A program made the translations under genes and the position numbers. A stretch of DNA of 64,000 nucleotides from an uncultured Bacilli bacterium (lineage in GTDB: Bacteria; Bacillota_I; Bacilli_A; RF39; UBA660), in contig CAKOSA010000001.1 of NCBI GenBank assembly GCA_934101865.1, forward strand, positions 22,235 through 86,234, written 5' to 3'. Under the pieces are notes generated by a model. The model was given only the letters and a program-made list of their open reading frames with translations. It did not search any database and was not told the origin of the DNA. How positions within the stretch are numbered: the first letter of the stretch is position 1; each line of letters opens with the position of its first letter. This document shows, piece after piece, positions 2,757 through 31,513 of the stretch.

Positions 2757-3400
2757 CAAGAGAGCAAAATGTTTTTGTAGCCAAGAGAAACATTGTTGAC
2801 TATATATGGAAAAGTGCAAACCTAGAAGGAATTGCTGTTACCTATCCCGAGACGCAGGCCATTTACGATGGTGGCATAGTAAACGGATTAACAGTAGATA
2901 AAATAATAACCATAAATAATCTAAAATATGCGTGGGAGTTTATTTTAGAAAACAAAGACATAGAATACGATTATAAAGCATTATGTCAAATTCATAAACT
3001 AACCTGTGATAAATTAGTCCTAGACCAAAACTTGGGAAGAATAAGAACTACCCCCGTAAATATAGGTGGAACAACTTGGAAACCCCCATTTCCCATAGAA
3101 AGTCAAATAAAAGAAGAGCTAGAAACATTAATAAATGAAGAAACCAAAACTAAAACCGAAATAGCTCTTGATGTAATGTTGTGGATAATGCGAAGGCAAA
3201 TGTTCAAGGGTGGTAATAAAAGAGTGGCAATGCTCTTTGCTAATAAAATAATGATAGATAATGGCTGTGGCATAATAACCATATCACAAGATAATCAAAG
3301 CACTTTTTTTGAAAAATTAATCAAATACTATGAAACAGGTGACAACCAAGATATAAAAAACTGGCTCTATGAAACCAGTATCGACGGAATGAACCTATAA
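2735..3400 (+). CDS. Fic/Doc-family protein with a degenerate Doc-type motif (QMFKGGNKR) lacking the catalytic His
   Basis: Fic-fold-like sequence with MFKGGNKRVAML where Fic/Doc proteins carry HxFx(D/N)(A/G)NKR. The His position is Gln. Overlaps the end of the methyltransferase gene by 22 nt. Confidence 0.55.
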   Translation: MENKYNLTREQNVFVAKRNIVDYIWKSANLEGIAVTYPETQAIYDGGIVNGLTVDKIITINNLKYAWEFILENKDIEYDYKALCQIHKLTCDKLVLDQNLGRIRTTPVNIGGTTWKPPFPIESQIKEELETLINEETKTKTEIALDVMLWIMRRQMFKGGNKRVAMLFANKIMIDNGCGIITISQDNQSTFFEKLIKYYETGDNQDIKNWLYETSIDGMNL

Positions 3401-8843: not shown

Positions 8844-9881
8844 ATGGATAAAATAGGAAAAAATTTAAAAAAAATAAGATTACTAAAAAATCTTTCCCTT
8901 AAAGAGGCTGGCCAACTATTAGGAATGAGTGCCACCGCCATAAACAAATACGAAAAAGGATATTTAATACCAAACTCATCAAAAGTAATAGAATTTGCCA
9001 ATGCCTATAACGTAAATTGTATCGATATACTAAGAGTATACGAAGAACCAGAGTTAAAGTTTACATCATTTAAAAAGAATGAAAAATTAACCGAGAAAAA
9101 ATTAGAAGTTTTAAAAATGGTAATACAAGAAGAAGTAGCAAAATATTTAGAAGTCATAGAATTAAACTCAATAACTGCCCAAAATATCTCTCTAAGGAAA
9201 TACAAATGTAGTACACTAGAAGATGCTGAACAAGCCTCTAACAAATTTAGAGAACACATAAAACTATCAAGCAAATATCCCATATCAGATTTAATAAGCA
9301 TCCTTGAAAACCTAGGAATACTCATAATTGAACTAGAAGATAAAAATAACTACTATGAAGGGTTTGAAGGCTTTAGCGAAGTCGTAAACAACATACCCAT
9401 TATAGTTATGAAAGAAAACAGAACTGATGTCTGTAAATACAGATATACCTTAGCTCACGAACTTGCCCATCTAATTCTTAAAATAGAAAATCCCCAAGTT
9501 AACGAAGAAAAACTATGTGATAGGTTTGCTAGCAGTTTACTTATGCCCAAAGAAGCCGTAATAAACGAATTTGGAAATAATAGAAGAAACATAAGCATTT
9601 ATGAACTAGTAGTCTTTAAAATAGAATATAAAGTAAATTATAAAGATATAATAACAAGACTAAAAGAACTAAACATAATAACAGAATACCTATATAAAAA
9701 ATTAAGTACAAGTCATATTATAGATGAAGGAATAACCTTCCAACCCGAAGTATCACATCAGTTTAAAAAACTAGTTCATAAATTAGAAACTGATGATATA
9801 ATAACAATAAATAAAGCCTGTGAACTATTAGGAACTACTCCCAATGAATATAACCGAGAAAATAATAATTACAGATATTAA
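8844..9881 (+). CDS. XRE-family HTH regulator fused to an ImmA/IrrE (COG2856, DUF955) zinc-metallopeptidase domain
   Basis: N-terminal HTH_XRE (LKKIRLLKNLSLKEAGQLLGMSATAINKYEKG). The C-terminal domain carries HEXXH (YTLAHELAHLIL) in the ImmA/IrrE context. Preceded by a TTTACA - 17 - TGcTAAAAT promoter. Confidence 0.8.
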   Translation: MDKIGKNLKKIRLLKNLSLKEAGQLLGMSATAINKYEKGYLIPNSSKVIEFANAYNVNCIDILRVYEEPELKFTSFKKNEKLTEKKLEVLKMVIQEEVAKYLEVIELNSITAQNISLRKYKCSTLEDAEQASNKFREHIKLSSKYPISDLISILENLGILIIELEDKNNYYEGFEGFSEVVNNIPIIVMKENRTDVCKYRYTLAHELAHLILKIENPQVNEEKLCDRFASSLLMPKEAVINEFGNNRRNISIYELVVFKIEYKVNYKDIITRLKELNIITEYLYKKLSTSHIIDEGITFQPEVSHQFKKLVHKLETDDIITINKACELLGTTPNEYNRENNNYRY

Positions 9882-10362
9882 CATAATTACCGATTTAGAC
9901 AACGCAGGCATTTTAGAAGAATTTATAACCATAAAAAACGTATACGTAAGTGATTTAATAAAAACAGATGAACTAAATCAAAAAACTGGTAATATAAATA
10001 CAATCAAAAAGGCCAAAGTAATAAGTGCCACCGACAAGCAAGTTTTAGAAGCAGTAAACTTATCGCTTATAAATAAAAAGTTATCAATGTACGATTTATT
10101 AAATTATGTGTTAGCTAGGGACAATAATTGCATTTTAGCAACGGGTGATAATAGATTAAAACAATATGCAGAATTAAATGATGTCGAAGTAATAAGAACT
10201 CTAAAAATAATAAAATTAATGACAACGCACAGTATAATATCCAAAGAAGTTGCTATTATCTCTTGTCAAAAACTAAAAGAAAATCCAAGGACAAGAATAC
10301 CCATTAACAGCATAGAACAAGTAATCATTTCCTTAACCGAAGAATTAACATCAATTAGCTAA
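9844..10362 (+). CDS. Hypothetical protein, possibly a PIN-like nuclease; candidate toxin/effector partner of the XRE-ImmA gene
   Basis: Overlaps the preceding gene by 38 nt. First strand IIITDINII with Asp, then TDK and GDN acidic motifs spaced as in PIN folds. The assignment is tentative. Confidence 0.4.
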   Translation: MNITEKIIITDINIITDLDNAGILEEFITIKNVYVSDLIKTDELNQKTGNINTIKKAKVISATDKQVLEAVNLSLINKKLSMYDLLNYVLARDNNCILATGDNRLKQYAELNDVEVIRTLKIIKLMTTHSIISKEVAIISCQKLKENPRTRIPINSIEQVIISLTEELTSIS

Positions 10363-19172: not shown

Positions 19173-20933
19173 ATGATAAAACTATTAAAAAAATTAAAAC
19201 CCAAACAATGGCTATATATACTATTTTGTGTAGCTCTAATCGTTTTACAAGTATATCTAGATCTAAAACTACCCGACTATATGGCTAGTATAACAAAGAT
19301 AGTACAAACCGAAGGAAGTTTAGTCAAAGACGTACTTGGCGAAGGAGCCAAAATGCTCATTTGTGCCTTTGGAAGTTTACTATCCGCTGTTGTTGTTAGC
19401 TATTTTGTAACCAAAGTAGCAGCTACCTTTTCCCGTGATTTAAGAAAAGATATCTTTGAAAAAGTACTATCATTTAGTATGGAAGAAATCAAAAACTTTT
19501 CAACCAGTAGCCTAATCACAAGAACAACTAACGATATAACCCAAGTCCAAATGCTAATAGCAATGGGTATGCAAATGCTTATAAAAGCCCCCATTATGGC
19601 TGTATGGGCAATAATGAAAATATATGGCAAAGGCTTTGAATGGAGTGTCATAACCGCTGGAGCTGTCGGAATACTCCTAATAATGATACTAATACTAGTA
19701 CTAGTAGCCTTACCAAAGTTCAAGATAATACAAAAATTAACCGATAATCTAAACCATACATCAAGAGAAAACCTAACCGGAATAAGAGTAGTAAGAGCCT
19801 TCAATGCCGAGAAATATCAAGAAGGAAAGTTTGCAAGTGCCAATAACGAACTAACCAAAACCAATATGTTTACATCAAGAACAATGGCTCTTCTAACCCC
19901 AGGTATGCAGCTCATAATGTCAGGACTATCCCTTTCCATATATTGGGTTGGAGCCTATATGATAAATGATGCCGGTATGTTAGATAAACTAACCATATTC
20001 AGTAATATGGTCGTATTCTCATCTTATGCAATGCAAGTAGTAATGTCATTTATGATGTTAACAATGATCTTTATATTCTATCCCCGTGCTCAAGTATCCG
20101 CTAAAAGAATACTAGAAATACTAGAAAAAAAACCAAAAATAGTATCTGGAGTATTCAGTGGAAAAACCAAAGAAACAGGAACAATAGAATTTAAAGATGT
20201 AACATTTAGATACCCAGATGCCGAAGAAAATATGCTTGAAAACATATCATTCAAAGTCGAAAAAGGAGAAACAGTAGCCTTTATCGGATCAACAGGTTCC
20301 GGAAAATCAACCCTAGTTAACCTCATACCAAGATTCTATGACGCCACTTATGGTGAAGTATTAGTAGACGGAGTAAACGTAAAAAACTATAAACTAGAAG
20401 AACTAAATAATCGTCTTGGCTATGTATCCCAAAAGCCAATAATATTTTCAGGAACAGTATCATCAAACATATCTTACGGATTAGTAAATAACAAAAAAGT
20501 ATCAAAAAGTAAGATAGAAGAAGCAAGTAAAGTAGCCCAAGCCAGTGAATTTATCGAAAAAATGGAAGACAAATACAATTCCAGTATCTCAAGATCAGGA
20601 ACCAATATATCAGGTGGACAAAAACAAAGACTATCAATAGCCCGTGCTATTGCTAGAGATCCCGAAATATATATCTTTGACGATACCTTCTCAGCACTAG
20701 ATTACAAAACCGATACCACTCTTAGAAAAGAATTAAAAAAACACACCAAAGATGCCACAACCCTAATAGTAGCCCAAAGAATAGGAACTATCAAAAATGC
20801 CGATAAAATAATCGTTCTAAATGAAGGAAAAATAGTAGGACAGGGAACACACAAAGAACTATTAAAAACCTGTGATGTTTATAAAGAAATAGCCCTATCC
20901 CAGTTAAGTAAGGAGGAACTCGAAAATGCATAA
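19173..20933 (+). CDS. ABC exporter permease/ATPase subunit of a heterodimer, with a degenerate ATP site (Walker B ...FDD, H-loop Gln)
   Basis: Six-TM domain plus NBD. Walker A GSTGSGKST. Signature ISGGQKQRLSIARA. Walker B IYIFDDTFSALD has D in place of the catalytic E. H-loop AQR in place of AHR. Confidence 0.85.
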   Translation: MIKLLKKLKPKQWLYILFCVALIVLQVYLDLKLPDYMASITKIVQTEGSLVKDVLGEGAKMLICAFGSLLSAVVVSYFVTKVAATFSRDLRKDIFEKVLSFSMEEIKNFSTSSLITRTTNDITQVQMLIAMGMQMLIKAPIMAVWAIMKIYGKGFEWSVITAGAVGILLIMILILVLVALPKFKIIQKLTDNLNHTSRENLTGIRVVRAFNAEKYQEGKFASANNELTKTNMFTSRTMALLTPGMQLIMSGLSLSIYWVGAYMINDAGMLDKLTIFSNMVVFSSYAMQVVMSFMMLTMIFIFYPRAQVSAKRILEILEKKPKIVSGVFSGKTKETGTIEFKDVTFRYPDAEENMLENISFKVEKGETVAFIGSTGSGKSTLVNLIPRFYDATYGEVLVDGVNVKNYKLEELNNRLGYVSQKPIIFSGTVSSNISYGLVNNKKVSKSKIEEASKVAQASEFIEKMEDKYNSSISRSGTNISGGQKQRLSIARAIARDPEIYIFDDTFSALDYKTDTTLRKELKKHTKDATTLIVAQRIGTIKNADKIIVLNEGKIVGQGTHKELLKTCDVYKEIALSQLSKEELENA

Positions 20934-22707
20934 TCACGAAAATAACGATAATCAAGTAAAAGACTTCAAAAAAGCCATAACAACCCTTCTAAAAAACTGT
21001 AAACCATATAAAACACCCATCATCATAGTAATGATTCTATCAGCCCTAGCAAGTGCCTTAGGAGTATATGGGCCAGGAAGATTAAAAGAAATAACCGATA
21101 CCATTACAGAAGGAATAATGACAGGAATAGACTTAAGTAAAGTAACCAAAATAGCCATTACCCTAACCATAGTATACACACTAAGTTGGCTTTTCAACTG
21201 CTTAGCAGGCTTCATAATGGCTACAGTTACCAATAAATTTTCTCAAAAACTAAGAAAAAACCTTTCCCATAAAATAAATAAACTACCCCTAAAATACTTC
21301 GATAAAAACAGTTATGGAGATGTATTATCAAGAATAACTAATGATGTAGATACAATTGGCCAGTCCCTAAACAATAGTATCAGTGACTTTGTAGGTGCCA
21401 TTACCCTCTTTATAGGTTCAATAATAATGATGTTTGCAACCAACTGGATAATGGCCATAACCGGAATAGTAGCCAGTCTAATCGGCTTTGCTCTAATGAT
21501 TGTAATACTATCCAAAAGCCAAAAATACTTCCTTCTTCAACAACAAGAGTTAGGAGAACTAAACGGTCATATCGAGGAAGTATACTCAGGCCACGATGTC
21601 GTAACTGTTTATAACGCTAATAAAGAAACAACCCAAAAGTTCGATGAGATAAACAATAAACTATACGATAGTGCTCGTAAAAGTAGATTTCTATCCGGAC
21701 TTATGATGCCCCTAATGAGCTTTATCGGATCATTCGGATATGTGGCTGTATGCGTGGTAGGAGCAGCCCTTGTTATAAACGGAAATATAACCTTTGGCGT
21801 AATAGTAGCCTTTATGATATACATAAGACTATTCACAAATCCGCTAAGTACAATCGCCCAAGCAATGACCTATATGCAGTCAACTGCTGCCGCATCAGAA
21901 AGAGTATTCGACTTCCTAGATGAAGAAGAAATGCCAAGCGAAAGAAATATTACCAAAAAATTACTACCCGAAGAAGTAAAAGGAAACGTTATCTTTGACC
22001 ACGTAAAATTTGGCTATGACGAAGACAAAATAATCATAAAAGACTTCTCAGCTAATATCAAAGCCGGTTCTAAGGTTGCTATCGTTGGCCCTACGGGAGC
22101 CGGTAAAACAACGATGGTTAACTTACTTATGAAGTTTTACGATATAAATTCCGGTGATATCAAAATAGATGACATATCCGTAAAGGACCTAACCAGAGAA
22201 AACGTTCACGACCTCTTTGTAATGGTACTTCAAGATACTTGGCTCTTTAAAGGCACAATCAAAGATAACATTAGATTTAATAGAGAAAATATAACAGATG
22301 AAGAGATAAAGAAAGCGTGTAAAACCGTTGGGATGGACCACTACATAAGATCCCTCTCCAAAGGATACGACACAATGCTTGAAGAAGTAGATAACCTTTC
22401 TGCTGGACAAAAACAATTACTAACAATAGCCCGTTGTATGACAAGTTCAGCCCCATTGTTAATATTAGATGAAGCAACATCATCAGTAGATACTAGAACC
22501 GAAGAACTAGTCCAAAAAGCAATGGATAAACTAACTGAGGGCAAAACATCCTTTATAATAGCCCATCGATTATCTACAATCAAAAATGCTGATTTAATTT
22601 TAGTTATGAACGAAGGTAACATCATTGAACAAGGTAATCACGAAGAATTACTAAAACAAGACGGTTTCTATGCTAAATTATATAATTCCCAATTTGAAAA
22701 TGTGTAA
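20926..22707 (+). CDS. ABC exporter permease/ATPase subunit, the partner with a canonical catalytic site
   Basis: Walker A GPTGAGKTT, signature LSAGQKQ, Walker B LLILDEATSSVD, H-loop IAHRLST. Overlaps the upstream subunit gene by 8 nt. Confidence 0.85.
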   Translation: MHNHENNDNQVKDFKKAITTLLKNCKPYKTPIIIVMILSALASALGVYGPGRLKEITDTITEGIMTGIDLSKVTKIAITLTIVYTLSWLFNCLAGFIMATVTNKFSQKLRKNLSHKINKLPLKYFDKNSYGDVLSRITNDVDTIGQSLNNSISDFVGAITLFIGSIIMMFATNWIMAITGIVASLIGFALMIVILSKSQKYFLLQQQELGELNGHIEEVYSGHDVVTVYNANKETTQKFDEINNKLYDSARKSRFLSGLMMPLMSFIGSFGYVAVCVVGAALVINGNITFGVIVAFMIYIRLFTNPLSTIAQAMTYMQSTAAASERVFDFLDEEEMPSERNITKKLLPEEVKGNVIFDHVKFGYDEDKIIIKDFSANIKAGSKVAIVGPTGAGKTTMVNLLMKFYDINSGDIKIDDISVKDLTRENVHDLFVMVLQDTWLFKGTIKDNIRFNRENITDEEIKKACKTVGMDHYIRSLSKGYDTMLEEVDNLSAGQKQLLTIARCMTSSAPLLILDEATSSVDTRTEELVQKAMDKLTEGKTSFIIAHRLSTIKNADLILVMNEGNIIEQGNHEELLKQDGFYAKLYNSQFENV

Positions 22708-22730
22708 AACAGTATTCCTTAGTTGGACTG

Positions 22731-22762
22731 AAAGAACCAAGCCAAAAAGCTTAGTTCTTTTT
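22731..22762 (+). repeat. 32-bp direct repeat copy 1, which is also a terminator hairpin: left boundary of the DpnII-type cassette
   Basis: AAAGAACCAAGCCAAAAAGCTTAGTTCTTTTT, identical to 25398..25429. Stem AAGAACCAAGC/GCTTAGTTCTT with one mismatch, loop CAAAAA, then TTTTT. Confidence 0.8.
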
Positions 22763-22850
22763 AGTATTAAACACAATATTAGTAACAAAAAAGTCAATTA
22801 TTATGATATAATATTATAAACATTATAAATAAAAAATCAGGAGGAAATGT

Positions 22851-23699
22851 ATGATTAAAGGAAAACCATTTGTAAAGTGGGCCGGAGGAAAAAGACAAAT
22901 AATAGATAAATTAAAACAATATGTTCCCGATGAGTTTAATACTTATTATGAACCATTTATAGGTGGAGGAGCATTATTGTTTGAACTTTCGCCTAAAAAA
23001 GCCGTTATTAATGATTGCAATAAAGAACTGATGAATGTATATGAATGTATTAAAGATGAGAAAAAGTTTGAAGCAATGTGCCGAGAACTAAATCATCACG
23101 AAACCGAACATTCAGAAGAATATTATTACGAGATTAGAAACATTGATAGGGATAAAAAGAAATTTAATAAGTTAGCAGACTATAAAAGAGCAGCTCGTAC
23201 TATTTACTTAAACAAAGCTTGTTTTAATGGCTTATATAGAGTTAATAGTAACAATGAATTTAACGTACCATTTGGTAAAAAAACTAAGGTAAATACTTAT
23301 GAAGGACAAAATTTAGGTATTATTTGTGGATACTTAAATTATAATGACATTAAGCTATTATCAGTAGATTTTGAAGAGGCAGTAAAAGATGCAAAAAAAG
23401 GAGATTTTATTTATTTTGATCCACCTTATGATTCTGATACATCAACATTTAATAGTTATACCGAAGATGGTTTTGGCAAGGAAGAACAAAAACGCCTTGC
23501 CAAAGTATTTAAAGAACTATCTGATAGAGGCTGTTATGTGATGCTTTCTAATCATAACACAATATTAGTAAATGAATTATATAAAGATTTCAATATTCAT
23601 ATAATTGAAGCAAAGAGAAATATTAATGCTAATGGAAAGAAGAGAGGTGAAGTAGAAGAATTAATTATTACAAATTTTGAAAATAAAAGAGGATTTTAA
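22851..23699 (+). CDS. dpnM: DNA adenine methyltransferase, DpnM/Dam family (GATC, D12 class N6-adenine MTase)
   Basis: FVKWAGGKRQ SAM motif, DPPY motif (FIYFDPPY), and a C-terminal block YVMLSNHNTILVNELYKDFNIHIIEAKR. 282 aa. Strong similarity, from memory, to S. pneumoniae DpnM. Confidence 0.85.
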   Translation: MIKGKPFVKWAGGKRQIIDKLKQYVPDEFNTYYEPFIGGGALLFELSPKKAVINDCNKELMNVYECIKDEKKFEAMCRELNHHETEHSEEYYYEIRNIDRDKKKFNKLADYKRAARTIYLNKACFNGLYRVNSNNEFNVPFGKKTKVNTYEGQNLGIICGYLNYNDIKLLSVDFEEAVKDAKKGDFIYFDPPYDSDTSTFNSYTEDGFGKEEQKRLAKVFKELSDRGCYVMLSNHNTILVNELYKDFNIHIIEAKRNINANGKKRGEVEELIITNFENKRGF

Positions 23700-23731
23700 T
23701 AGTCAATGATGTATAATAAAGGAGGTAGTAT

Positions 23732-24499
23732 GTGAATAAAAAGTTTTATTATGAAGATAAAGATTTTAAACTCATACAAGGTGATTCTTTTAAAATATTA
23801 AAAGAAATAGAACCAAAAAGCATTGATATGATATTTGCTGACCCCCCTTATTTTTTATCCAGTGATGGTATTTCTTGTAGTGGCGGAAAAATGGTATCAG
23901 TAAATAAAGGTAATTGGGATAAATCTATCAGTATAGAAGAAAAACATAAATTTAATCGAAAGTGGATTAAACTATGCTATCATATATTAAAAGATAATGG
24001 TACTATTTGGATTAGCGGAACTATGCACAATATTTATTCAATAGGTATGGCATTGGAACAAGAAGGATTTAAAATAATAAATAATATAACTTGGAAAAAG
24101 TTAAATCCTCCACCAAATATTAGTTGTAGGGCATTTGTTCATTCCACTGAAACAATTCTATGGGCTAAAAAAAATTTAAAAAATTCCAAACACAAATTTA
24201 ATTATTCATTGATGAGAGAATTAAACGGGGATAAACAAATGAAAGATGTTTGGGAGTCATCACTCACTAAACCTAGTGAGAAAAAATGTGGTAAACATCC
24301 TACTCAAAAACCTATGGAAATATTAGAAAAAATTATATTATCATCAACAGATGAAGGTGATTTAATATTAGATCCATTTAATGGAAGCGGTACTACTGGA
24401 ATTGTTGCTAGTAGATTAAATAGAAAGTATATAGGTATCGAAAAAGAAAAAGAATATTTTGACTTAACAATAAGAAGAAAGGAAAGTGATATAAAATGA
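23732..24499 (+). CDS. dpnA: Second DNA N6-adenine methyltransferase of the DpnII system (DpnA-like, ssDNA-active in the pneumococcal system)
   Basis: MIFADPPYFLSSDG, WISGTMHNIYSIGMALEQEGFKI, KHPTQKP, and a GSGTTG motif. 255 aa, closely resembling pneumococcal DpnA as recalled. Confidence 0.8.
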   Translation: MNKKFYYEDKDFKLIQGDSFKILKEIEPKSIDMIFADPPYFLSSDGISCSGGKMVSVNKGNWDKSISIEEKHKFNRKWIKLCYHILKDNGTIWISGTMHNIYSIGMALEQEGFKIINNITWKKLNPPPNISCRAFVHSTETILWAKKNLKNSKHKFNYSLMRELNGDKQMKDVWESSLTKPSEKKCGKHPTQKPMEILEKIILSSTDEGDLILDPFNGSGTTGIVASRLNRKYIGIEKEKEYFDLTIRRKESDIK

Positions 24500-25389
24500 A
24501 ACGTGAATTTAATGATGTAATAAAAGGTCTAAAAAAGAGTATTACTCCAACTGATTTTTTTGTAGATTATCCTAAGGTATATTTAAATATAAAAGATTAT
24601 GAAAGACATTTAAATTTATTAAATAGTTTAATTGGTAAAGAAAATATTGAAGAAGAATTTATTGATTTAATATCCGAATATCCAGAAATAATGAAATCAA
24701 TTCCAATTCTTTTAGCAACCCACGAAACAAAATTTGATATTGTAAATGTTCCAACAATGACAATACTTGACAATATAAAAAATAGAAATTTTAATATTAT
24801 AGATGAACAATATATATGCTATGATTTTATTCAATTAAATCATCCTATTGAAGATTATGCTGAATTCTTAAAAAAGAGTGGTTTATTAGAATTGCTAAAA
24901 GATAAAAAGATTAAAAGCCTTGTTGATTATGCAATAGGAATAGAAGTAGGTATGGATACTAATGCTAGAAAATCTAGGTCTGGAAAAATAATGGAAACAA
25001 TAGTTGAAGAATATATTAAACTTTTAGATATTCAATATAATTGTCAAATGAAAAGTGCAAATATAGATAAGAAATATGGAACCAATTTATGTTCAATAGG
25101 TAAAGCAACTAAAAAGTTTGATTTTGTTTATAAAAGTAAAACTGATGGAAAAATAATAGTTATGGAAGTTAATTATTATGGAAAGCAAGGATCAAAACCA
25201 AATGAAACTGCAAAAAGCTATATTGAATTAAACAATAAAATAAAAGCAATTGATAATGTGAAATTTGTTTGGATAACTGACGGAAGAGGGTGGTTACCAT
25301 CTAAAACCAATTTAGAAGATGCTTATGATGAAATTGAATATTTATATACGCTTGAGGATTTAGAAAAAGGCATTTTAGAAAAAATATAA
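24496..25389 (+). CDS. dpnB: Type II restriction endonuclease, DpnII/MboI family (GATC-specific, cuts unmethylated DNA)
   Basis: 297 aa with GIEVGMDTN, KFDFV, EVNYYG..GSK.NETAKSY and FVWITDGRGW blocks typical of the DpnII/MboI REase family. Overlaps the dpnA-like gene by 4 nt. Confidence 0.75.
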   Translation: MKREFNDVIKGLKKSITPTDFFVDYPKVYLNIKDYERHLNLLNSLIGKENIEEEFIDLISEYPEIMKSIPILLATHETKFDIVNVPTMTILDNIKNRNFNIIDEQYICYDFIQLNHPIEDYAEFLKKSGLLELLKDKKIKSLVDYAIGIEVGMDTNARKSRSGKIMETIVEEYIKLLDIQYNCQMKSANIDKKYGTNLCSIGKATKKFDFVYKSKTDGKIIVMEVNYYGKQGSKPNETAKSYIELNNKIKAIDNVKFVWITDGRGWLPSKTNLEDAYDEIEYLYTLEDLEKGILEKI

Positions 25390-25397
25390 AACTAACC

Positions 25398-25429
25398 AAA
25401 GAACCAAGCCAAAAAGCTTAGTTCTTTTT
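25398..25429 (+). repeat. 32-bp direct repeat copy 2, which is also a terminator hairpin: right boundary of the DpnII-type cassette
   Basis: Exact copy of 22731..22762, located immediately after the REase stop. Confidence 0.8.
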
Positions 25430-25468
25430 ATTATTCCCAAATCATAAACTTAATCAAGGAGTGATACA

Positions 25469-26659
25469 ATGAAAGTCATAATAGATCCCGCTAGGGGAGG
25501 AAACGATACCGGAGTAAGTGGGGGAGGAATAACCGAAAAAGATTGGAACCTCACCATATCAAAATACATCTACAATATCCTCAAAAATAATGGCATCGAA
25601 GCCTACCTAACTCGAACTGAGGATATCGATATTCCTGAAGCCGAGCGGGCTACTAAAATAAAAAACTACGCCGCCTCATCAAACGATATCATCGTTATAT
25701 CCAATCGCCTAAATGAAGGTAAAGACGATGGAGCCGAAATCATCTATCCATTAAGAAGTACTGATAACCTCGCCAAAGCCCTTGCCACCGCCCTCGAAAA
25801 TACAGGTCAAAACGTAAACAAATACTATCAACGACGCCTCCCATCCGATCTTGCCTCCGACTACGACTACATAATAAGAAACACCTCTCCCTACGAAACC
25901 CTCATCATAAACTACGGCTATGTCGATAGCCCTGAGGACGATGTAACCCAGTTAAAAAACTATCAACGCTTAGGTGACGCCATTGCAAGTGCTATCATAT
26001 CTCGCGTGTCTTCTAGCGGTACTTACACCGTAAAAACCGGCGATACCCTTTACAGTATTGCCAAGAAATATAACGTCTCCGTAAACGCTCTCAAAACCCT
26101 AAACAACCTCTCCACAAATACCCTTAGAGTAGGCCAAAAACTAAAAATCCCCGCCCAAGAAACCACAACCCCTTCTGCTCCTACCACTCCAAGTACAAAT
26201 ACCTATACCGTAAAAAGAGGCGATACTCTCTATGGGATAGCCCGTGATAATAACACCACTGTCGATACCCTCAAAAGCCTCAATAACCTCACCACCACTA
26301 ACCTAAGTATAGGCCAAACTATAAAACTACCAACTTCCTCCTCATCACCTTCCGGCACCCCCAATACCCTAACATACACCATAAAAAAAGGCGACACTCT
26401 CTACGGCATAGCCACCAAATATAATACCACCATCTCCGCCATCAAATCCCTAAACAATCTTGACACCAACACCCTAACCATTGGCAAAACCCTCAAAATC
26501 CCCACCACCACTTCCTACACAACCTATACCGTGAAAAAAGGCGATAACCTCTATACCATAGCCCGTAAATATAACACCACCGTAAACAATCTCGTTAACC
26601 TAAACAACCTCAAAACCACCACCCTCTCTATCGGTCAAACCCTCAAAGTCCCCCTCTAA
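25469..26659 (+). CDS. N-acetylmuramoyl-L-alanine amidase (Amidase_3) with five C-terminal LysM repeats
   Basis: MKVIIDPARGGNDTGVSG amidase_3 N-terminus. Five repeats of the form YTVKxGDTLYxIAxKYNxxxxxLxxLNNL..xxLxxGQxLKIP. Confidence 0.85.
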   Translation: MKVIIDPARGGNDTGVSGGGITEKDWNLTISKYIYNILKNNGIEAYLTRTEDIDIPEAERATKIKNYAASSNDIIVISNRLNEGKDDGAEIIYPLRSTDNLAKALATALENTGQNVNKYYQRRLPSDLASDYDYIIRNTSPYETLIINYGYVDSPEDDVTQLKNYQRLGDAIASAIISRVSSSGTYTVKTGDTLYSIAKKYNVSVNALKTLNNLSTNTLRVGQKLKIPAQETTTPSAPTTPSTNTYTVKRGDTLYGIARDNNTTVDTLKSLNNLTTTNLSIGQTIKLPTSSSSPSGTPNTLTYTIKKGDTLYGIATKYNTTISAIKSLNNLDTNTLTIGKTLKIPTTTSYTTYTVKKGDNLYTIARKYNTTVNNLVNLNNLKTTTLSIGQTLKVPL

Positions 26660-26737
26660 TATCTAAATTTGACAACTTTTGTCGAATGACTTGCACAATA
26701 AAAAAAATATGCTATTATATACTTAGGAGGAATAAAT

Positions 26738-26833
26738 ATGCCAAGATATATCCTAGCCTTAGATATCTTTGATGACATGCTAAACGACTTAAAAGACATC
26801 AAAATAAATACCTATCTAATAAAAGAAAAATAG
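26738..26833 (+). CDS. Possible 31-aa small ORF with a strong RBS upstream of the TasA-like paralog B
   Basis: AGGAGG lies 8 nt before the ATG. It encodes MPRYILALDIFDDMLNDLKDIKINTYLIKEK. Not in the ORF track because it is under 60 aa. Coding status is uncertain. Confidence 0.25.
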   Translation: MPRYILALDIFDDMLNDLKDIKINTYLIKEK

Positions 26834-26902
26834 ACTAAACCCCTTGCAAATACCCCCATTATATGATAAAATTTACTTATATTAAAGTAAGAGGTGAATA
26901 TA

Positions 26903-28426
26903 GTGGACACTACCAATAATAAAAGAAAACTAATCCTATCCCTAGTCCTACTAACATCAGTAGTACTACTAGGAACCTTTGCTTGGTACGTATGGTCAAG
27001 TAAAGAAAATACCAGTATGAACGTAACAATTGGGGAACTAGCCGATGTAACCTTTAAAACCGGAACCGATATAAATATAACCAATCTATCCCCAAGTTTT
27101 AACTATGATGACGGAGCCCTAACCGAGTTCTCCATAAAGAAAAAGAAAGACCTAACTACGGAACTAAATACTAACATATATCTAGATATCACTTCCATAT
27201 CCGATAGCCTAAAATCATCAGCCTTCAAATATGAATTACTAAGTAGTAGTGACGGTAATACATATAATAGTGTAGCTAGTGGTAACTTCCAAGACGCATC
27301 CGTAGGTAAATTAAATATATTAACCGATACCCCCCTAGCTGATAACAGAACCTATTATAAACTATATATCTGGATAGATGGTAATGAAGAAAATGATACA
27401 TCTATGCAATCCAGTAGTATGAAAGGGGTATTAAATGTAAATGTATCTACACCTCCGGTTAATGCCATAACCCTAGTTGAGGGGTTAGACGATGGTACCA
27501 CAGGGGATAGTGGAAGTGGAGTATATAAGGTAGAACACGACGCTATTGCGAGTGGTAATAGTGCTACGGGTAATGAAATAAAAGCTACTACTGATTATAG
27601 ATATTATGGTGCTAATGCTAATAACTATATATGCTTAGATATGGAAGGACAGAGTACTTGTCCAGATAGAGGCTTATTTAGGATAATAGGAAGTATTTAC
27701 GAAGAAAATGCTGGTACTAATTTAATTAAGGTAATAAAGGCCACACCCTTAACAGATGGAACAACTAGTACATTTAGTTGGGATTATACTTCAAGTGGCA
27801 CTTATAAAAATATATGGTCTAGTACCACTAGTGGAACGAGTAGTGGGGCCACACTAATGCAATTATTAAATGGTATATATTTAACCAGAGGCTCAGGTAG
27901 TTACTATAATGGTAGTACAACAGCAACAACAATTGATTTTAGTAATACAGGATTAACAGATGTTGCTCAAAGTTTAATGAATACTGGTAAAAGTAATAAT
28001 GGATTAAGTAAATATTATTTAGGGGGATATTCAGATACAAGCTTAAAAACTGATGCCATATATTTAGCAGAAAGAGGCAAGGCAACTAGTAGTGGTAATG
28101 CCTTATACTGGGATGGAAAAGTAGGCTTAATGTATCCAAGTGATTATGGGTATGCAGCGGGAAATGATTGTGTTACTAATACAGCTCCTTATGATTATAA
28201 TGGTGGATGTCGCGATAAAGATTGGTTATATAGAAGTAATAGTTATGAGTGGACACTTACGCCATACGCCTCTGTCACGTTTGGCGTGTGGCTCGTGTAC
28301 AATGGTCACGCGGGCTACGACCGTTCGAGCGGTCCGATCGGTTCCCGCCCCACCTTCTATCTCAAATCTAACATCTCTGTAACAGGCGGAACAGGCACCT
28401 CTTCTGATCCCTATACAGTGGAATAA
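26903..28426 (+). CDS. TasA/camelysin-like protein with a SipW-cognate-type signal anchor, fused to the conserved Cys-containing C-terminal domain (paralog B)
   Basis: Signal anchor KRKLILSLVLLTSVVLLGTFAWYVWSSKENTSMNVTIGEL. INITNLSPS resembles the TasA/CalY NLSNLKPGD block. The C-terminal half is homologous to the 10781..12307 protein. Start chosen as GTG 26903, 5 nt after AGAGGTGA; the ORF-track start 26894 lies inside the RBS. Confidence 0.6.
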   Translation: MDTTNNKRKLILSLVLLTSVVLLGTFAWYVWSSKENTSMNVTIGELADVTFKTGTDINITNLSPSFNYDDGALTEFSIKKKKDLTTELNTNIYLDITSISDSLKSSAFKYELLSSSDGNTYNSVASGNFQDASVGKLNILTDTPLADNRTYYKLYIWIDGNEENDTSMQSSSMKGVLNVNVSTPPVNAITLVEGLDDGTTGDSGSGVYKVEHDAIASGNSATGNEIKATTDYRYYGANANNYICLDMEGQSTCPDRGLFRIIGSIYEENAGTNLIKVIKATPLTDGTTSTFSWDYTSSGTYKNIWSSTTSGTSSGATLMQLLNGIYLTRGSGSYYNGSTTATTIDFSNTGLTDVAQSLMNTGKSNNGLSKYYLGGYSDTSLKTDAIYLAERGKATSSGNALYWDGKVGLMYPSDYGYAAGNDCVTNTAPYDYNGGCRDKDWLYRSNSYEWTLTPYASVTFGVWLVYNGHAGYDRSSGPIGSRPTFYLKSNISVTGGTGTSSDPYTVE

Positions 28427-28449
28427 AATTAAAACAATAATATATATAT

Positions 28450-28474
28450 CTACCCCCTAGTAGGGTAGTTTTTC
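28450..28474 (+). terminator. Rho-independent terminator after TasA-like paralog B
   Basis: CTACCC-CCTAGTA-GGGTAG hairpin followed by TTTTT. Confidence 0.6.
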
Positions 28475-28579
28475 TTTACAAACTATAAAAAAATATAAAA
28501 AATATTAATTTATATATTGCCAACTTTAAATAACTATTATATAATAACATTTAGTAAGTATAAAGAAAGAGGTAGTATA

Positions 28580-29266
28580 ATGAAGAAAGCAGTAACAATA
28601 ACCCTAGTAATAATAATGGTATTACTAATAAGTGGATGTATAAAGAAAAATGAATTAACCGACGGAGAGAAGTTTAAAGAAGAGTATGAAGTATATAACG
28701 GAAAATCAATTGATAGTGGTACTTATCTAACCCTAGATATAAAAGAAGATAATATCATAAAATACTCAAATCTAAAAGAAGTAAACCAAATCCTAGATAA
28801 CGGAACAGGCGTAATATACTTAGGATTTCCCAAATGCCCTTGGTGTAGGAATGCCGTAAAAGAACTATTAGATGCATCAAGCTCTACTTCCCTAGATAAA
28901 ATATACTACGTAGATATGCAAAATGAAAGAGATACAATGAAGCTAGATGCAAACGGTAATATAGTAACAACTAATAAAGCAAGTAATGAATACTATAAAC
29001 TAGTAGATAAACTAAAAGATATATTAGATGACTATATAATATATGATACAGAAAATAATGAACACAATACCGGAACTAAAAGAGTATATGTTCCCCTTGT
29101 CCTCTTCGTAAGAGACGGTGAACTAGTAGGATACCACCAAAATACCGTGGAAAGCCAAACCGATCCTTACGTAGAACTAAATGAAGAACAATCTAAGGAA
29201 CTATATAATATATATCAAACTAATATACATAAAGTGTTAAAGGATATGTGTGATGATAAATGTTAA
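28580..29266 (+). CDS. Thioredoxin-fold lipoprotein with a CxxC motif (putative extracytoplasmic thiol-disulfide oxidoreductase)
   Basis: Lipoprotein signal with a lipobox (LLISGC). FPKCPWCRNA CxxC motif in a thioredoxin-like context. Start moved to the ATG at 28580, which follows the GAAAGAGG RBS. Confidence 0.65.
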   Translation: MKKAVTITLVIIMVLLISGCIKKNELTDGEKFKEEYEVYNGKSIDSGTYLTLDIKEDNIIKYSNLKEVNQILDNGTGVIYLGFPKCPWCRNAVKELLDASSSTSLDKIYYVDMQNERDTMKLDANGNIVTTNKASNEYYKLVDKLKDILDDYIIYDTENNEHNTGTKRVYVPLVLFVRDGELVGYHQNTVESQTDPYVELNEEQSKELYNIYQTNIHKVLKDMCDDKC

Positions 29267-29481
29267 AGAAACCCCGAAATGAAGATTTAATAAATGTCTT
29301 TGAAAGAAGATGGAAAGCAAACCATAATAACGATTTAAAAGACGCTAAACAAAGACAAGAAGAATTTAATAAGAAGATGTATGGTGAAAGACCCAAGTAT
29401 AAACCCTTAACAAATGAAGAAAAGTTAAGAGAAATGAATAAAAATATTGAAAATCTAAGACGAAATAATCGTCCTTTCTAA
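29260..29481 (+). CDS. Small basic hypothetical protein (73 aa)
   Basis: Its start overlaps the lipoprotein stop (ATGTTAA). Lys/Arg-rich. No known motif. Confidence 0.3.
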   Translation: MLKKPRNEDLINVFERRWKANHNNDLKDAKQRQEEFNKKMYGERPKYKPLTNEEKLREMNKNIENLRRNNRPF

Positions 29482-29496
29482 GGAGGAAGTAACACT

Positions 29497-30117
29497 ATGA
29501 ATATAGATTTATACCAGTATGAAAAAGAATTATGGAATAAGAATATAAACTTAGTAGGAGGTATAGATGAAGTAGGAAGAGGACCCCTAATAGGACCCGT
29601 GGTAGCAGCTTGTGTAATATTACCAAAGGACTTTGTATTAGAAGGACTTACGGATTCAAAAAAATTATCCGAGAAGAAAAGAGAAAAGTTCTATGATGTA
29701 ATTATGGATAAAGCCATAGCGGTAGGAATAGGGCAAGCTAGTGAAAAAGTAATTGATGAAATAAATATCTATGAGGCAACTAAGGTAGCAATGAAAGAAG
29801 CGGTTCAAAACTGTAAAATAAAGCCTGAACATATCCTCGTTGATGCAATGCCCCTCTCCCTAGATGTTCCAACTACTTCGATAATAAAAGGCGATGCCAA
29901 GTCTATAACTATTGCCGCTGCCTCCGTAATTGCCAAAGTAACAAGGGACCGAATGCTCGTTGAACTAGATAAAAAGTACCCAATGTATGACTTGAAGCAC
30001 AACAAAGGGTATGGTACAAAAAAGCATATTGAGGCCCTACGGGAGTATGGAATAACAAAATACCATCGATTAAGCTTTGCCCCCGTTAAAGAGAATAGTT
30101 CTAAAATATTACCTTAA
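29497..30117 (+). CDS. rnhB: Ribonuclease HII
   Basis: GIDEVGRGPLIGPVVAACVILP active-site motif plus DSK and KGD blocks. 206 aa. Confidence 0.9.
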   Translation: MNIDLYQYEKELWNKNINLVGGIDEVGRGPLIGPVVAACVILPKDFVLEGLTDSKKLSEKKREKFYDVIMDKAIAVGIGQASEKVIDEINIYEATKVAMKEAVQNCKIKPEHILVDAMPLSLDVPTTSIIKGDAKSITIAAASVIAKVTRDRMLVELDKKYPMYDLKHNKGYGTKKHIEALREYGITKYHRLSFAPVKENSSKILP

Positions 30118-30236
30118 TACTTATCTATATATAATATAGATACCCCCAAAATGTTACATAACACTTGGTAGTAAATGATTATTTTATGTAACCACCCCTA
30201 ATCTAATTCCAAAGAACGTGAAGCGTATAGTTTTAA

Positions 30237-30280
30237 AAAAAGTTTTGCAAGAAAAAGTAACCTTGCAAAACTTTTTTAAA
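30237..30280. terminator. Bidirectional terminator between rnhB (+) and lexA (-)
   Basis: 13-bp perfect inverted repeat AAAGTTTTGCAAG ... CTTGCAAAACTTT, flanked by A-runs on one side and T-runs on the other. Confidence 0.65.
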
Positions 30281-30902
30281 ACTTTCTATATAATCCCACA
30301 ACCTTACCAACAATAACCGCCTTTTTAACAATAATCGGGTCATATTCAGGGTTATCAGTTTGAAGCCTATCAAAACCTCTCTCATTAAATAATCTTTTAA
30401 TTGTCGGCAAATTGTTCTTATCTAGGGCAACTACCATATCGCCGTCCTTAGCCTTTTCACATTTTTTAACAATAACAATATCACCACTCAGAATGCCACT
30501 ACCAACCATATCATCATTAATTTTCTGCATAGCATATACATCAACATCTTCATCCGCTAAATACGTTGGAATAGAGAAAATCTCATTTGGTGTATCAAGT
30601 TCAAGTAAGTAATTGCCATTACCCTCCTTAATTAAAGGAACATTAACAACCTCATCACTCTTTGTATCATATTCATTAGGAACCAAAAGTTCAATCGCCT
30701 TATTACCATAAGGATTTCTCTTAACATATCCCTTTTCAACAAGCCCCTTCAAATGAACGTGTATTGTCGCCGGAGAGTTTATACCAATAATTTCCCCAAT
30801 CTGTCTTACAGAAGGTGGATATTTGTTCTCCGCATAAAACTTCTTGATAACGGTAAGTACCTCTTTCTGTTTTTTTGTAAGTCCTATCGATTTTGTTCGC
30901 AT
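30276..30902 (-). CDS. lexA: LexA repressor (S24 peptidase family)
   Basis: N-terminal wHTH (LTKKQKEVLTVIKKFYAENKYPPSVRQIGEIIG), a C-terminal S24 domain with SGDIVIV...DGDMVVAL, and a Lys dyad partner. Start set to the second ATG (MRTKS), which has a GGGAGG RBS. Confidence 0.9.
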   Translation of the reverse strand: MRTKSIGLTKKQKEVLTVIKKFYAENKYPPSVRQIGEIIGINSPATIHVHLKGLVEKGYVKRNPYGNKAIELLVPNEYDTKSDEVVNVPLIKEGNGNYLLELDTPNEIFSIPTYLADEDVDVYAMQKINDDMVGSGILSGDIVIVKKCEKAKDGDMVVALDKNNLPTIKRLFNERGFDRLQTDNPEYDPIIVKKAVIVGKVVGLYRKF

Positions 30903-30930
30903 TAAAAATACCTCCCTAATTTTTTTCATT

Positions 30931-30966
30931 TGCTAATATAATAGCACATTTCTTTTGGTTTGTCAA
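30931..30966 (-). promoter_or_regulatory. lexA promoter (TTGACA - 17 - TATTAT, minus strand) with a TGCTA-N6-TAGCA dyad overlapping the -10
   Basis: On the minus strand the -35 is TTGACA (30961-30966) and the -10 is TATTAT (30938-30943). The near-palindrome TGCTAATATAATAGCA spans 30931-30946. No canonical CGAAC-N4-GTTCG Cheo box was seen nearby. Confidence 0.45.
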
Positions 30967-31078
30967 ACAAATGTTAAAGATTTATTAAAAGTTTTTTTCT
31001 TTCTTACTCATATTATCTAAGTATTGCCATACTTTTCCAAAAGTGCCCATAAATTAAGGGTTTTAAAGTCCCAAAAAT

Positions 31079-31199
31079 ATGCTGGAAATATGCTGGAATT
31101 ATGCAGATTTTCAAAAATTGTTGATCTCGCATTGCAGATTTTCAAAAACTGCAAGTCCAAACCAGCAGAAATTCAAAAATTGCACCATCACCCAAAGCA
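31079..31199. repeat. Tandem repeat block: two 11-bp ATGCTGGAAxT units, then three units at an exact 31-bp period starting GAxxTTCAAAAA(T/C)TG and ending GCA
   Basis: ATGCTGGAAAT / ATGCTGGAATT at 31079-31100. TTCAAAAA at 31110, 31141 and 31172. Units GATTTTCAAAAATTGTTGATCTCGCATTGCA, GATTTTCAAAAACTGCAAGTCCAAACCAGCA and GAAATTCAAAAATTGCACC... Confidence 0.7.
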
Positions 31200-31257
31200 A
31201 GGCCAAATAAACGAGCCCGCATCCTATCACAAAAAAAATCAAAAAATTTAGTTACCT

Positions 31258-31458
31258 CTCAAAGTAATGGACACTAATAAAATCAGTAAATATTATTCTC
31301 AAAGTAATGGAAATAGATATTCTCAAAGCAACGGAAACTATTTTTTCAAAGTGTCCATTACACTGATAATTAAGATGTTCCAAATGTTTTTTTATTTAGG
31401 CGTATTCTCAAAGTAATGGAAACTATTTTTTAAAGTGTTCATTACCCTGAGAATTAAG
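31258..31458. repeat. Four copies of ATTCTCAAAG(T/C)AA(T/C)GGAAA: two half-units and two full 55-bp imperfectly palindromic units
   Basis: Half-units at 31258-31274 and 31295-31316. Full units at 31319-31374 and 31404-31458 are about 88 % identical. The second unit has perfect outer arms ATTCTCAG/CTGAGAAT. Confidence 0.7.
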
Positions 31459-31484
31459 AAAATCAAAAAATTATCAAAAAATGG

Positions 31485-31513
31485 TTGACATATAAAAAGT
31501 AATAAGTTATAAT
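31485..31513 (+). promoter_or_regulatory. Consensus sigma-A promoter (TTGACA - 17 - TATAAT) for the 31580 ORF
   Basis: TTGACA at 31485-31490 and TATAAT at 31508-31513, immediately downstream of the palindromic repeat units. The leader contains the palindrome GTTATAAC twice. Confidence 0.55.

Follow-up and report, generated by a model that had tools for sequence, protein, structure and literature searches.

Between a two-gene ABC exporter operon and the gene for an Amidase_3 protein with four LysM repeats, the DNA analyzed here (the window, a stretch of 64,000 nt from an uncultured gut species of Bacilli) carries an intergenic restriction-modification (R-M) cassette of three co-directional open reading frames (ORFs; 22851-25389). 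These encode, in the order M1-M2-R, a Dam-class DNA methyltransferase (M1, dpnM-like), a beta-class DNA methyltransferase (M2, dpnA-like) and an endonuclease (R, dpnB-like). We conclude, with a probability of roughly 80%, that this is an intact R-M operon of the DpnII/LlaDCHI type that was inserted with duplication of a 33-bp target, a terminator hairpin, that has spread by recombination of its flanks, and that can decay. The placement of the cassette between the exporter operon and the LysM amidase had been proposed in a sequence-only reading that preceded this work, and Pfam matches to the flanking genes support it.

A DpnII-type operon with three intact genes

The assignment of each gene is supported by family models and by homology (Table 1). 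M1 carries the motifs FIGGGA (FxGxG) and DPPY, scores 285.7 bits on the TIGR00571 dam model of NCBIfam against a cut-off of 114.85, and is matched over its full length by the sequence of the DpnM structure (2DPM, E 2.8e-85). M2, which starts with GTG 7 nt downstream of an AGGAGG, has DPPY near its N terminus and FNGSGTTG near its C terminus, and its closest solved relative is CcrM (6PBD, 7.6e-59). R also matches the PADLOC model REase_II (4e-90) and retains every one of the 53 columns that do not vary among nine diverse homologues, R.LlaDCHI included; it belongs to a clade that carries an insertion of ~15 residues absent from the LlaDCHI endonuclease. A structure model predicts that R adopts the PD-(D/E)XK fold of restriction enzymes, with low confidence at residues 151-160, near the conserved D/E/R/K block, and a sequence search of solved structures with R returned no match. 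Thus the Pfam and NCBIfam matches, together with homology to LlaDCHI and DpnM, confirm the earlier proposal of a DpnII-type cassette with products of 282, 255 and 297 aa in the order dpnM-dpnA-dpnB, and disruption of the endonuclease gene, which would have spoken against that proposal, is excluded by a full-length frame with all 53 of 53 invariant columns in place. The further description of the three genes as overlapping holds for dpnA and dpnB, which share 4 nt (ATGA, the ATG of dpnB lying over the dpnA stop), and fails for dpnM and dpnA, which are separated by 32 nt.

The base composition of the cassette sets it apart from its surroundings. Its GC content is 0.23-0.29 versus 0.34-0.45 in the flanks, and the GC content at third codon positions (GC3) is 0.17, 0.17 and 0.12 in the three genes versus 0.22-0.49 in neighboring genes, in agreement with the lower GC3 expected from the sequence-only reading.

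An AGGAGG ribosome-binding site precedes dpnM at 22839-22844, and upstream of it we read a putative extended -10 element, TGATATAAT. The longer sequence ATGATATAAT, which contains this element, is kept upstream of dpnM in four of seven genomic contexts, with homology lost further upstream; a promoter consensus scan requiring a -35 element made no call at 22804..22812. The three genes form a 2.6-kb, very AT-rich module with what is apparently an extended -10 promoter of its own. A TATAAT at 23712-23717, before dpnA, was also considered and is probably not a promoter, because a transcript starting there would cut into the ribosome-binding site.

The cassette is bracketed by two copies of a terminator-like hairpin

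Flanking the cassette are two direct repeats, AAAGAACCAAGCCAAAAAGCTTAGTTCTTTTTA, previously noted as perfect over 32 bp at 22731 and 25398 and in fact exact over 33 bp (37 of 38 positions over 38 bp), with an insert of 2,634 bp between the copies. The 32-mer occurs only twice in the window, even when up to 3 mismatches are allowed, where shuffled sequence gave an expectation of 0, and the longest flanking repeat among shuffled flanks was 12 bp. Outside the present locus the hairpin core was found at none of 82 loci compared, and an exact search of JGI metagenome contigs with the 32-mer gave no match. The idea that the element might be a common generic repeat is thus contradicted by its two copies in 64 kb and its absence (0/82) from the loci compared elsewhere.

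Folding bears out that both copies are terminator-like hairpins with a T run: each is a stem-loop followed by Ts (-10.3 and -13.6 kcal/mol, z -5.5 and -3.1). The perfect repeat is made up of a 30-nt stem-loop plus 3 nt, and its left edge coincides with the base of the stem. A site scan also called the coordinates of the right hairpin as terminator-like, but on the minus strand. Since the terminator of the ABC operon stands on both sides of the module, the left hairpin would still terminate the upstream operon, and the right hairpin would terminate the cassette ahead of the amidase gene. As judged from the order of these signals, the arrangement would combine termination of the ABC operon, a promoter belonging to the cassette, and a block to read-through into the amidase.

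Two further features overlap the hairpins. A 39-aa ORF called across the left hairpin by metagenome gene callers (window 22700-22819, 5232-5351 of contig L001), which begins just before the stop codon of the second ABC exporter gene (ABC2), is most likely spurious. At the right hairpin, positions 25394-25417 consist of three imperfect tandem units, AACCAAAG, AACCAAG and CCAAAAAG, which begin just ahead of the hairpin, extend across its 5' arm and loop, and hint that this loop may have arisen by slippage from a hairpin of the type found at empty sites.

Four alleles at the ABC-exporter/amidase junction

Comparison contigs (designated L001, L002 and so on) are metagenome assemblies, and among those of the same species we found four alleles at this junction: an empty site, two forms with the full cassette, and an orphan dpnM. 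The empty allele is present in L003, the species representative (the uncultured human-gut 'Bacilli bacterium' metagenome-assembled genome HGM10819), whose ABC2 is 98% identical to that of the window, and in L087, a strain whose TrmK is identical to that of the window. In both, the ABC2 stop is followed by a single hairpin, T1 (AAAGA[A/G]CTAAG-TT[T/C]CTCCC-CTTAGTTCTTTTTATTATT), and then directly by the amidase gene. The hairpin of the window, T2, reads AAAGAACCAAG-CCAAAAAG-CTTAGTTCTTTTT; T1 and T2 have both arms and the T run in common and differ at all 8 of 8 loop bases, so that 24 of 33 positions are identical. The full cassette lies between two identical T2 hairpins in the window, L001 and L002, and between T2 on the left and T1 on the right, with an empty-type right flank, in L102, L103 and L109, the cassettes of which are 2-4% diverged from that of the window. 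Occupied alleles without exception carry a hairpin at either side, and empty alleles a single hairpin. The left T2 is present, with one substitution, in all occupied alleles, and the exact flanking repeat is 33 bp in the window, L001, L002 and L116, and 14 bp in L102, L103 and L109.

The orphan allele, in L116, consists of T2, the promoter, dpnM (283 aa; 4 mismatches in 840 nt) and T2, its positions 2096-3169 in reverse complement corresponding to window positions 22707-23699 plus 25390-25469. The deletion removes dpnA and dpnB (~23696-25389 in window numbering), and the junction sequence, GAGGTTTCATCTAAATAACC, is not that of a clean microhomology deletion. The cassette can decay to a methylase-only allele.

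The predicted presence/absence polymorphism is thus real, with empty and occupied alleles in one species, although two details attached to that prediction were only partly correct. A related empty site does carry one hairpin, as in L003 and L087, but the hairpin is T1, with a different loop, and not a single copy of the 32-bp element. Clean deletion between the repeats, proposed as the source of the polymorphism, does not account for the sampled empty sites: their 3' untranslated region (UTR) differs from that of occupied alleles at 6 of 16 nt before the hairpin, and this, together with the entirely different loop, indicates that none of the sampled empty sites arose by deletion from the sampled occupied alleles.

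The same observations bear on whether the cassette is ancestral at this position and the empty alleles were formed by recombination between the flanking repeats. The 33-bp direct repeats could support such deletion and a partial deletion allele, L116, exists, but we regard this history as very unlikely given the differences in the 3' UTR (6/16 nt) and in 8/8 loop bases, the GC3 of the cassette far below that of its neighbors, the occurrence of the same module in at least six other contexts, and the sister species L004, in which the ABC operon is followed by an unrelated gene.

Probable movement of the cassette among strains with its flanks

Comparison of the window with the empty-site strain L087 shows 100% identity from ~10.5 kb to position 21,482 and 99-100% identity again beyond ~31.5 kb, whereas from 21,483 to ~31.5 kb the two are 83-95% identical and align poorly at ~31.0-31.45 kb, the divergence over the tract being put at 8-17%. 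Within this tract, from 21.5 kb on, the window does not differ from L002, an occupied contig, which in the shared flank to the left of the tract departs from L087 by 3-12% (7-31 mismatches per 250 nt). Identity to L087 outside the tract and divergence within it indicate that the cassette arrived in a ~10-kb import by homologous recombination. Mismatch maps place the final ~1.2 kb of ABC2 (from ~21483) within the imported tract, and an exact-sequence look-up of the window ABC2 protein found no match, probably because the protein is a recombinant chimera.

Left breakpoints vary among strains, from ~21.48 kb in the window (right breakpoint ~31.5 kb) to between 22368 and 22425 in L001, which shares the cassette and right flank of the window and in which a further isolated patch, at 17.9-19.7 kb, is diverged, and to between 22699 and 22717 in L102, L103 and L109. 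The last three are empty-type to 22,698 and occupied-type from 22,718, and they revert to empty-type exactly between AACC and AAAGAG, at the start of the right hairpin. The simplest reading of these mosaics is that other backgrounds have repeatedly received the occupied allele of a diverged lineage through homologous recombination of the flanks, by which the occupied allele would continue to move among strains after insertion. The polymorphism is kept and reshuffled by such recombination and not by excision between the repeats.

Proposed insertion beside a duplicated terminator

Insertions with long target duplication have been defined by R and M genes within an insert of <20 kb, direct repeats of >30 bp, and a single copy of the repeat at the empty site; their repeats often span gene boundaries, and most of the listed cases are in naturally competent species (PMC2853133). 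At the present locus, two M genes and one R gene lie in an insert of 2,634 bp; the direct repeat is 33 bp in the window, L001, L002 and L116; it aligns to the single hairpin of the empty sites in L003 and L087, with 24 of 33 positions identical; and there are no mobility genes in ~10 kb of flanks, nor is the repeat dispersed in the 64-kb window or among the 82 loci. In one possible route of the first insertion, T2 would have been the native terminator of a diverged lineage and would have been duplicated upon insertion, and the T2/T1 alleles would have formed later by a right-hand crossover within the 9-nt sequence AACCAAAGA. A perfect repeat that is delimited by the stem favors this primary target duplication.

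Several observations weigh against the account as a whole. The right hairpin of L102, L103 and L109 is the T1 of empty sites and the identical pair is confined to the window-type haplotype, so that a history of a single target duplication needs at least one further recombination event. An empty allele with a single window-type hairpin (AAAGAACCAAGCCAAAAAGCTTAGTTCTTTTTA followed by ATTATTCCC; predicted site GGACTGAAAGAACCAAGCCAAAAAGCTTAGTTCTTTTTATTATTCCC) was not found: exact-match searches for the diverged haplotype with the amidase, RNase HII, LexA and dpnM proteins yielded occupied or orphan alleles only. Flanking repeats are present in only one of seven cassette contexts, that of the window. 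Strain-chimeric metagenome contigs could mimic some of the mosaic blocks; the same tight junctions recur in three separate contig records (L102, L103 and L109), which indicates that they are not an artifact of one assembly, and the presence/absence polymorphism is independent of this concern. The GATC specificity that we propose below rests on homology and on the depletion of GATC. Finally, a streptococcal ComX (cin) box, TACGAATA, is absent from the cassette and from the region before dpnA, its sole copy in the window being at 11953, and this absence is unsurprising outside streptococci. The view that the cassette was inserted beside a duplicated terminator is supported, with the qualification that the perfect repeat is confined to one haplotype and is T2/T1 in L102, L103 and L109.

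The T2/T1 alleles also permit the reverse order of events, in which they are the older form, the perfect 33-bp repeat is secondary, and the window-type lineage gained its right-hand T2 later, by conversion. Entry would then have been anchored on the left in homology of the ABC gene, carrying in the left hairpin as the ABC terminator of the donor, with an illegitimate or microhomology join on the right, at AACCAAAGA, just upstream of the resident T1. Consistent with this order, the right hairpin of L102, L103 and L109 and everything rightward of it is undisturbed empty-site sequence; donor-type sequence in these contigs begins 11-30 nt past the ABC2 stop; the AACC before the right hairpin matches the empty site in all occupied alleles, the left copy being preceded by ACTG; and there has been no crossover in the much longer identical start of the amidase gene, where one would be expected had T2/T1 been derived from the window-type allele. 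Nevertheless, this order supposes gene conversion between two 33-bp sequences that lie 2.6 kb from each other, it moves the origin of the donor arrangement of ABC gene, hairpin and cassette back by merely one step, and it leaves aside that the perfect identity ends at the base of the left stem, which target duplication explains simply. We consider a secondary origin of the repeat somewhat unlikely.

The edge of the repeat at the stem base and the junctions of L102, L103 and L109 within ~30 nt of the hairpin raise the speculative possibility, to which we give little credence, that the hairpin itself was the entry point, a cruciform or stalled fork having been cut at its base and filled in, with natural transformation in this lineage as a corollary. 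If true, this would offer a first clue to the mechanism of insertion with long target duplication, which is so far unexplained, and the 10-kb mosaic imports and the DpnA-like methylase would point to natural transformation in small-genome gut Bacilli.

The same module in other genomic contexts

The same M-M-R set occurs in at least six unrelated gut Bacilli contexts (L088, L092, L096, L104, L107 and L108), with R 67-92% identical. DNA homology in these contexts starts between 22,784 and 22,851 of the window and does not extend beyond 25,391, only a few nucleotides after the stop codon. In none of the six do flanking direct repeats exceed chance (10-11 bp, with maxima of 11-16 bp under the null). 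We considered whether a fourth gene is conserved ahead of dpnM and rejected this, the upstream neighbors in L088 and L092 being unrelated. In L092 (2328-7894), a 583-aa large serine recombinase is encoded ~1.3 kb upstream of the related cassette, separated from it by a single unrelated 284-aa gene, and this cassette may be part of an integrative element; that in L088 (10793-12237) lies ~2.9 kb upstream of an AbiEi/AbiEii pair, a neighborhood that may be a defense island.

None of the usual vehicles is evident. No integrase or transposase was called within ~10 kb on either side of the window cassette, and the cassette lacks terminal inverted repeats, which argues against a transposon. A phage vehicle was rejected since no viral-contig relative was found and phage records contained only methylase fragments, and a plasmid vehicle was rejected since the endonuclease homologues found on plasmids reach no more than 39% identity. 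The repeats might still be attachment sites of an element whose integrase or transposase is encoded elsewhere, in keeping with the serine recombinase next to the L092 cassette. The lack of a recombinase in the ~10 kb on either side and of terminal inverted repeats, the absence of flanking repeats in the six other contexts, and the lack of a whole-cassette match in phage records or viral contigs, with plasmid R homologues at ≤39%, render such an origin extremely improbable.

GATC specificity and activity

By homology, the Dam-class M1 would methylate double-stranded GATC and the DpnII-family R would cut unmethylated GATC, and recognition, methylation and cleavage at this site are what we predict for the cassette. 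GATC is depleted in the window (43 observed versus 151 expected, ratio 0.28), and its observed/expected ratio is 0.37-0.40 in empty-site contigs of the same species.

Alternatively, the genes could be present without forming a working GATC barrier, either because restriction is silent or inactive or because the specificity is another one, with the methylases acting mainly as epigenetic regulators. A methylase-only allele does circulate, R is only 36% identical to a characterized enzyme, and the low-confidence segment of its model (151-160) adjoins the conserved D/E/R/K block. We nonetheless find this decidedly unlikely, given three full-length reading frames with the dpnA and dpnB frames overlapping (ATGA), retention of all invariant residues of the endonuclease family, R identity of 81-99% across many strains and contexts, and depletion of GATC to ~0.3 of expectation.

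Another tetranucleotide is depleted to a greater extent. CATG is nearly absent from the window (5 observed versus 164 expected, ratio 0.03), with ratios of 0.10 in the same-species contigs L087 and L003 and 1.17 in the sister species L004, which suggests a long-resident CATG-specific restriction system in the species. The only DPPY-type methylase ORFs in the window are dpnM and dpnA, so that genes of a CATG system do not lie within it. GCGC is also rare (3 versus 18 expected).

Comparison with known systems

The DpnII cassette of Streptococcus pneumoniae has the order dpnM-dpnA-dpnB (Lacks et al. 1986 Cell 46:993, as cited in PMC3812788; Johnston et al. 2013, PMC3573125). Its DpnA methylates single-stranded DNA, is expressed from a ComX-dependent promoter, and protects incoming unmethylated heterologous DNA during transformation (PMC3573125). 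The two cassettes share all three protein families and their order, with products of similar size, and both are chromosomal, strain-variable and exchanged through flanking homology. They differ in that the cassette here alternates with an empty site or a methylase-only allele and that of pneumococcus with the DpnI cassette, in that the present cassette is flanked by a duplicated terminator, and in that its host is an uncultured gut member of the Bacilli without known competence. By analogy with DpnA, M2 is a candidate for a role in single-strand methylation.

LlaDCHI (LlaII), from the Lactococcus lactis plasmid pSRQ700 (NC_002798.1), has the identical M-M-R organization, with identities over nearly the full length of 50% for M1 (to M.LlaDCHIA), 67% for M2 and 36% for R. 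Unlike the present cassette, it is plasmid-borne, it adjoins recombinase genes, and all three of its genes overlap. A further DpnII-isoschizomer cassette, SsuDAT1I of Streptococcus suis, which is said to have been described by Sekizaki and co-workers in 2001, reportedly comprises two methylases and two endonuclease genes, has a GC content below that of its host, and is found in some strains only, between two housekeeping genes. It is not known to have long flanking repeats.

As in the long-target-duplication R-M units (Nobusato et al. 2000 Gene 259:99; Furuta et al. 2010, PMC2853133), R and M genes stand alone between repeats of >30 bp, without mobility genes, with the repeat at a gene boundary and a single copy at a related empty site. 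Here a terminator stem-loop with 3 further nt forms the duplicated target, the copies are identical in one haplotype only, the sampled empty sites carry another hairpin allele (24/33), and the host is of the firmicute type (Bacilli), which is not among the hosts reported there (PMC2853133).

The surrounding region

Housekeeping chromosomal genes are distributed across the window (obg, dnaG-rpoD, trmK, uvrB, gyrB, mutS, pyk, glyA and thyA). Labels on more distant relatives include Mycoplasma sp. CAG:776 and Candidatus Aphodocola, which we take to be RF39-type Bacilli with small genomes. The amidase of empty-site strains has 339 aa, 57 aa fewer than the 396 aa of the window protein, in which a repeat family, D1, occupies 26021-26656; the shorter length fits one LysM unit fewer, three versus four. 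Further to the right, a 510-aa ORF without a Pfam match (26894-28426) is hypervariable even between two otherwise nearly identical empty-site strains (up to 201 mismatches or gaps in one enlarged alignment bin of 391 columns) and may be a surface or phage-receptor-like protein under diversifying selection. On the far left, a 471-nt segment (9888-10358), comprising most of a 172-aa ORF without a Pfam match (9844-10362), is missing from the otherwise identical L087. It lies just downstream of a Fic gene and a gene with helix-turn-helix and ImmA/IrrE (Peptidase_M78) domains, and a short repeat, TAACA(A/T)AAT, is present at its junctions.

Table 1. Coordinates of the cassette, its hairpins and its flanks in the window.
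Feature	Position	Strand	Basis
Diverged tract of ~10 kb, cassette included, interpreted as a homologous-recombination import (ends approximate)	21483..31500	.	Comparison of window with L087
ABC2, second ABC exporter gene, 593 aa, left flank	20926..22707	+	Pfam ABC_membrane and ABC_tran
Left 33-bp terminator hairpin T2, AAAGAACCAAGCCAAAAAGCTTAGTTCTTTTTA	22731..22763	+	Exact repeat; fold -13.6 kcal/mol
Putative cassette promoter, extended -10 TGATATAAT	22804..22812	+	Read from sequence
dpnM-like (M1), Dam-class (alpha, D12) N6-adenine DNA methyltransferase, 282 aa, ATG start	22851..23699	+	PF02086, 5.5e-63
dpnA-like (M2), beta-class N6_N4 DNA methyltransferase, 255 aa	23732..24499	+	PF01555 N6_N4_Mtase, 1.1e-64
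dpnB-like (R), DpnII-family type II restriction endonuclease, 297 aa	24496..25389	+	PF04556, 1.5e-88, profile 2-278 of 278
Right 33-bp terminator hairpin copy	25398..25430	+	Exact repeat; folding
Amidase_3 protein with four LysM repeats, 396 aa, right flank, within the diverged imported tract	25469..26659	+	Pfam

Implications

Both as a DpnII-type R-M system and as an insertion with long target duplication, the locus is of a kind already known, and it does not overturn current understanding. It fits two established patterns, that of a Kobayashi-type insertion with long target duplication and that of pneumococcus-like exchange through flanking homology. With its terminator hairpin as the target, it adds a case from Bacilli, a firmicute-type host, to the few R-M systems catalogued as inserted with long target duplication. 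One uncultured gut species exhibits the life stages of an R-M module, from the empty site, through insertion beside a duplicated terminator and recombinational spread, to decay that leaves an orphan Dam methylase. As a result, strains are predicted to differ in GATC methylation; such differences would shape phage susceptibility and gene flow within the species, and would be usable for binning strains from long-read metagenomes.

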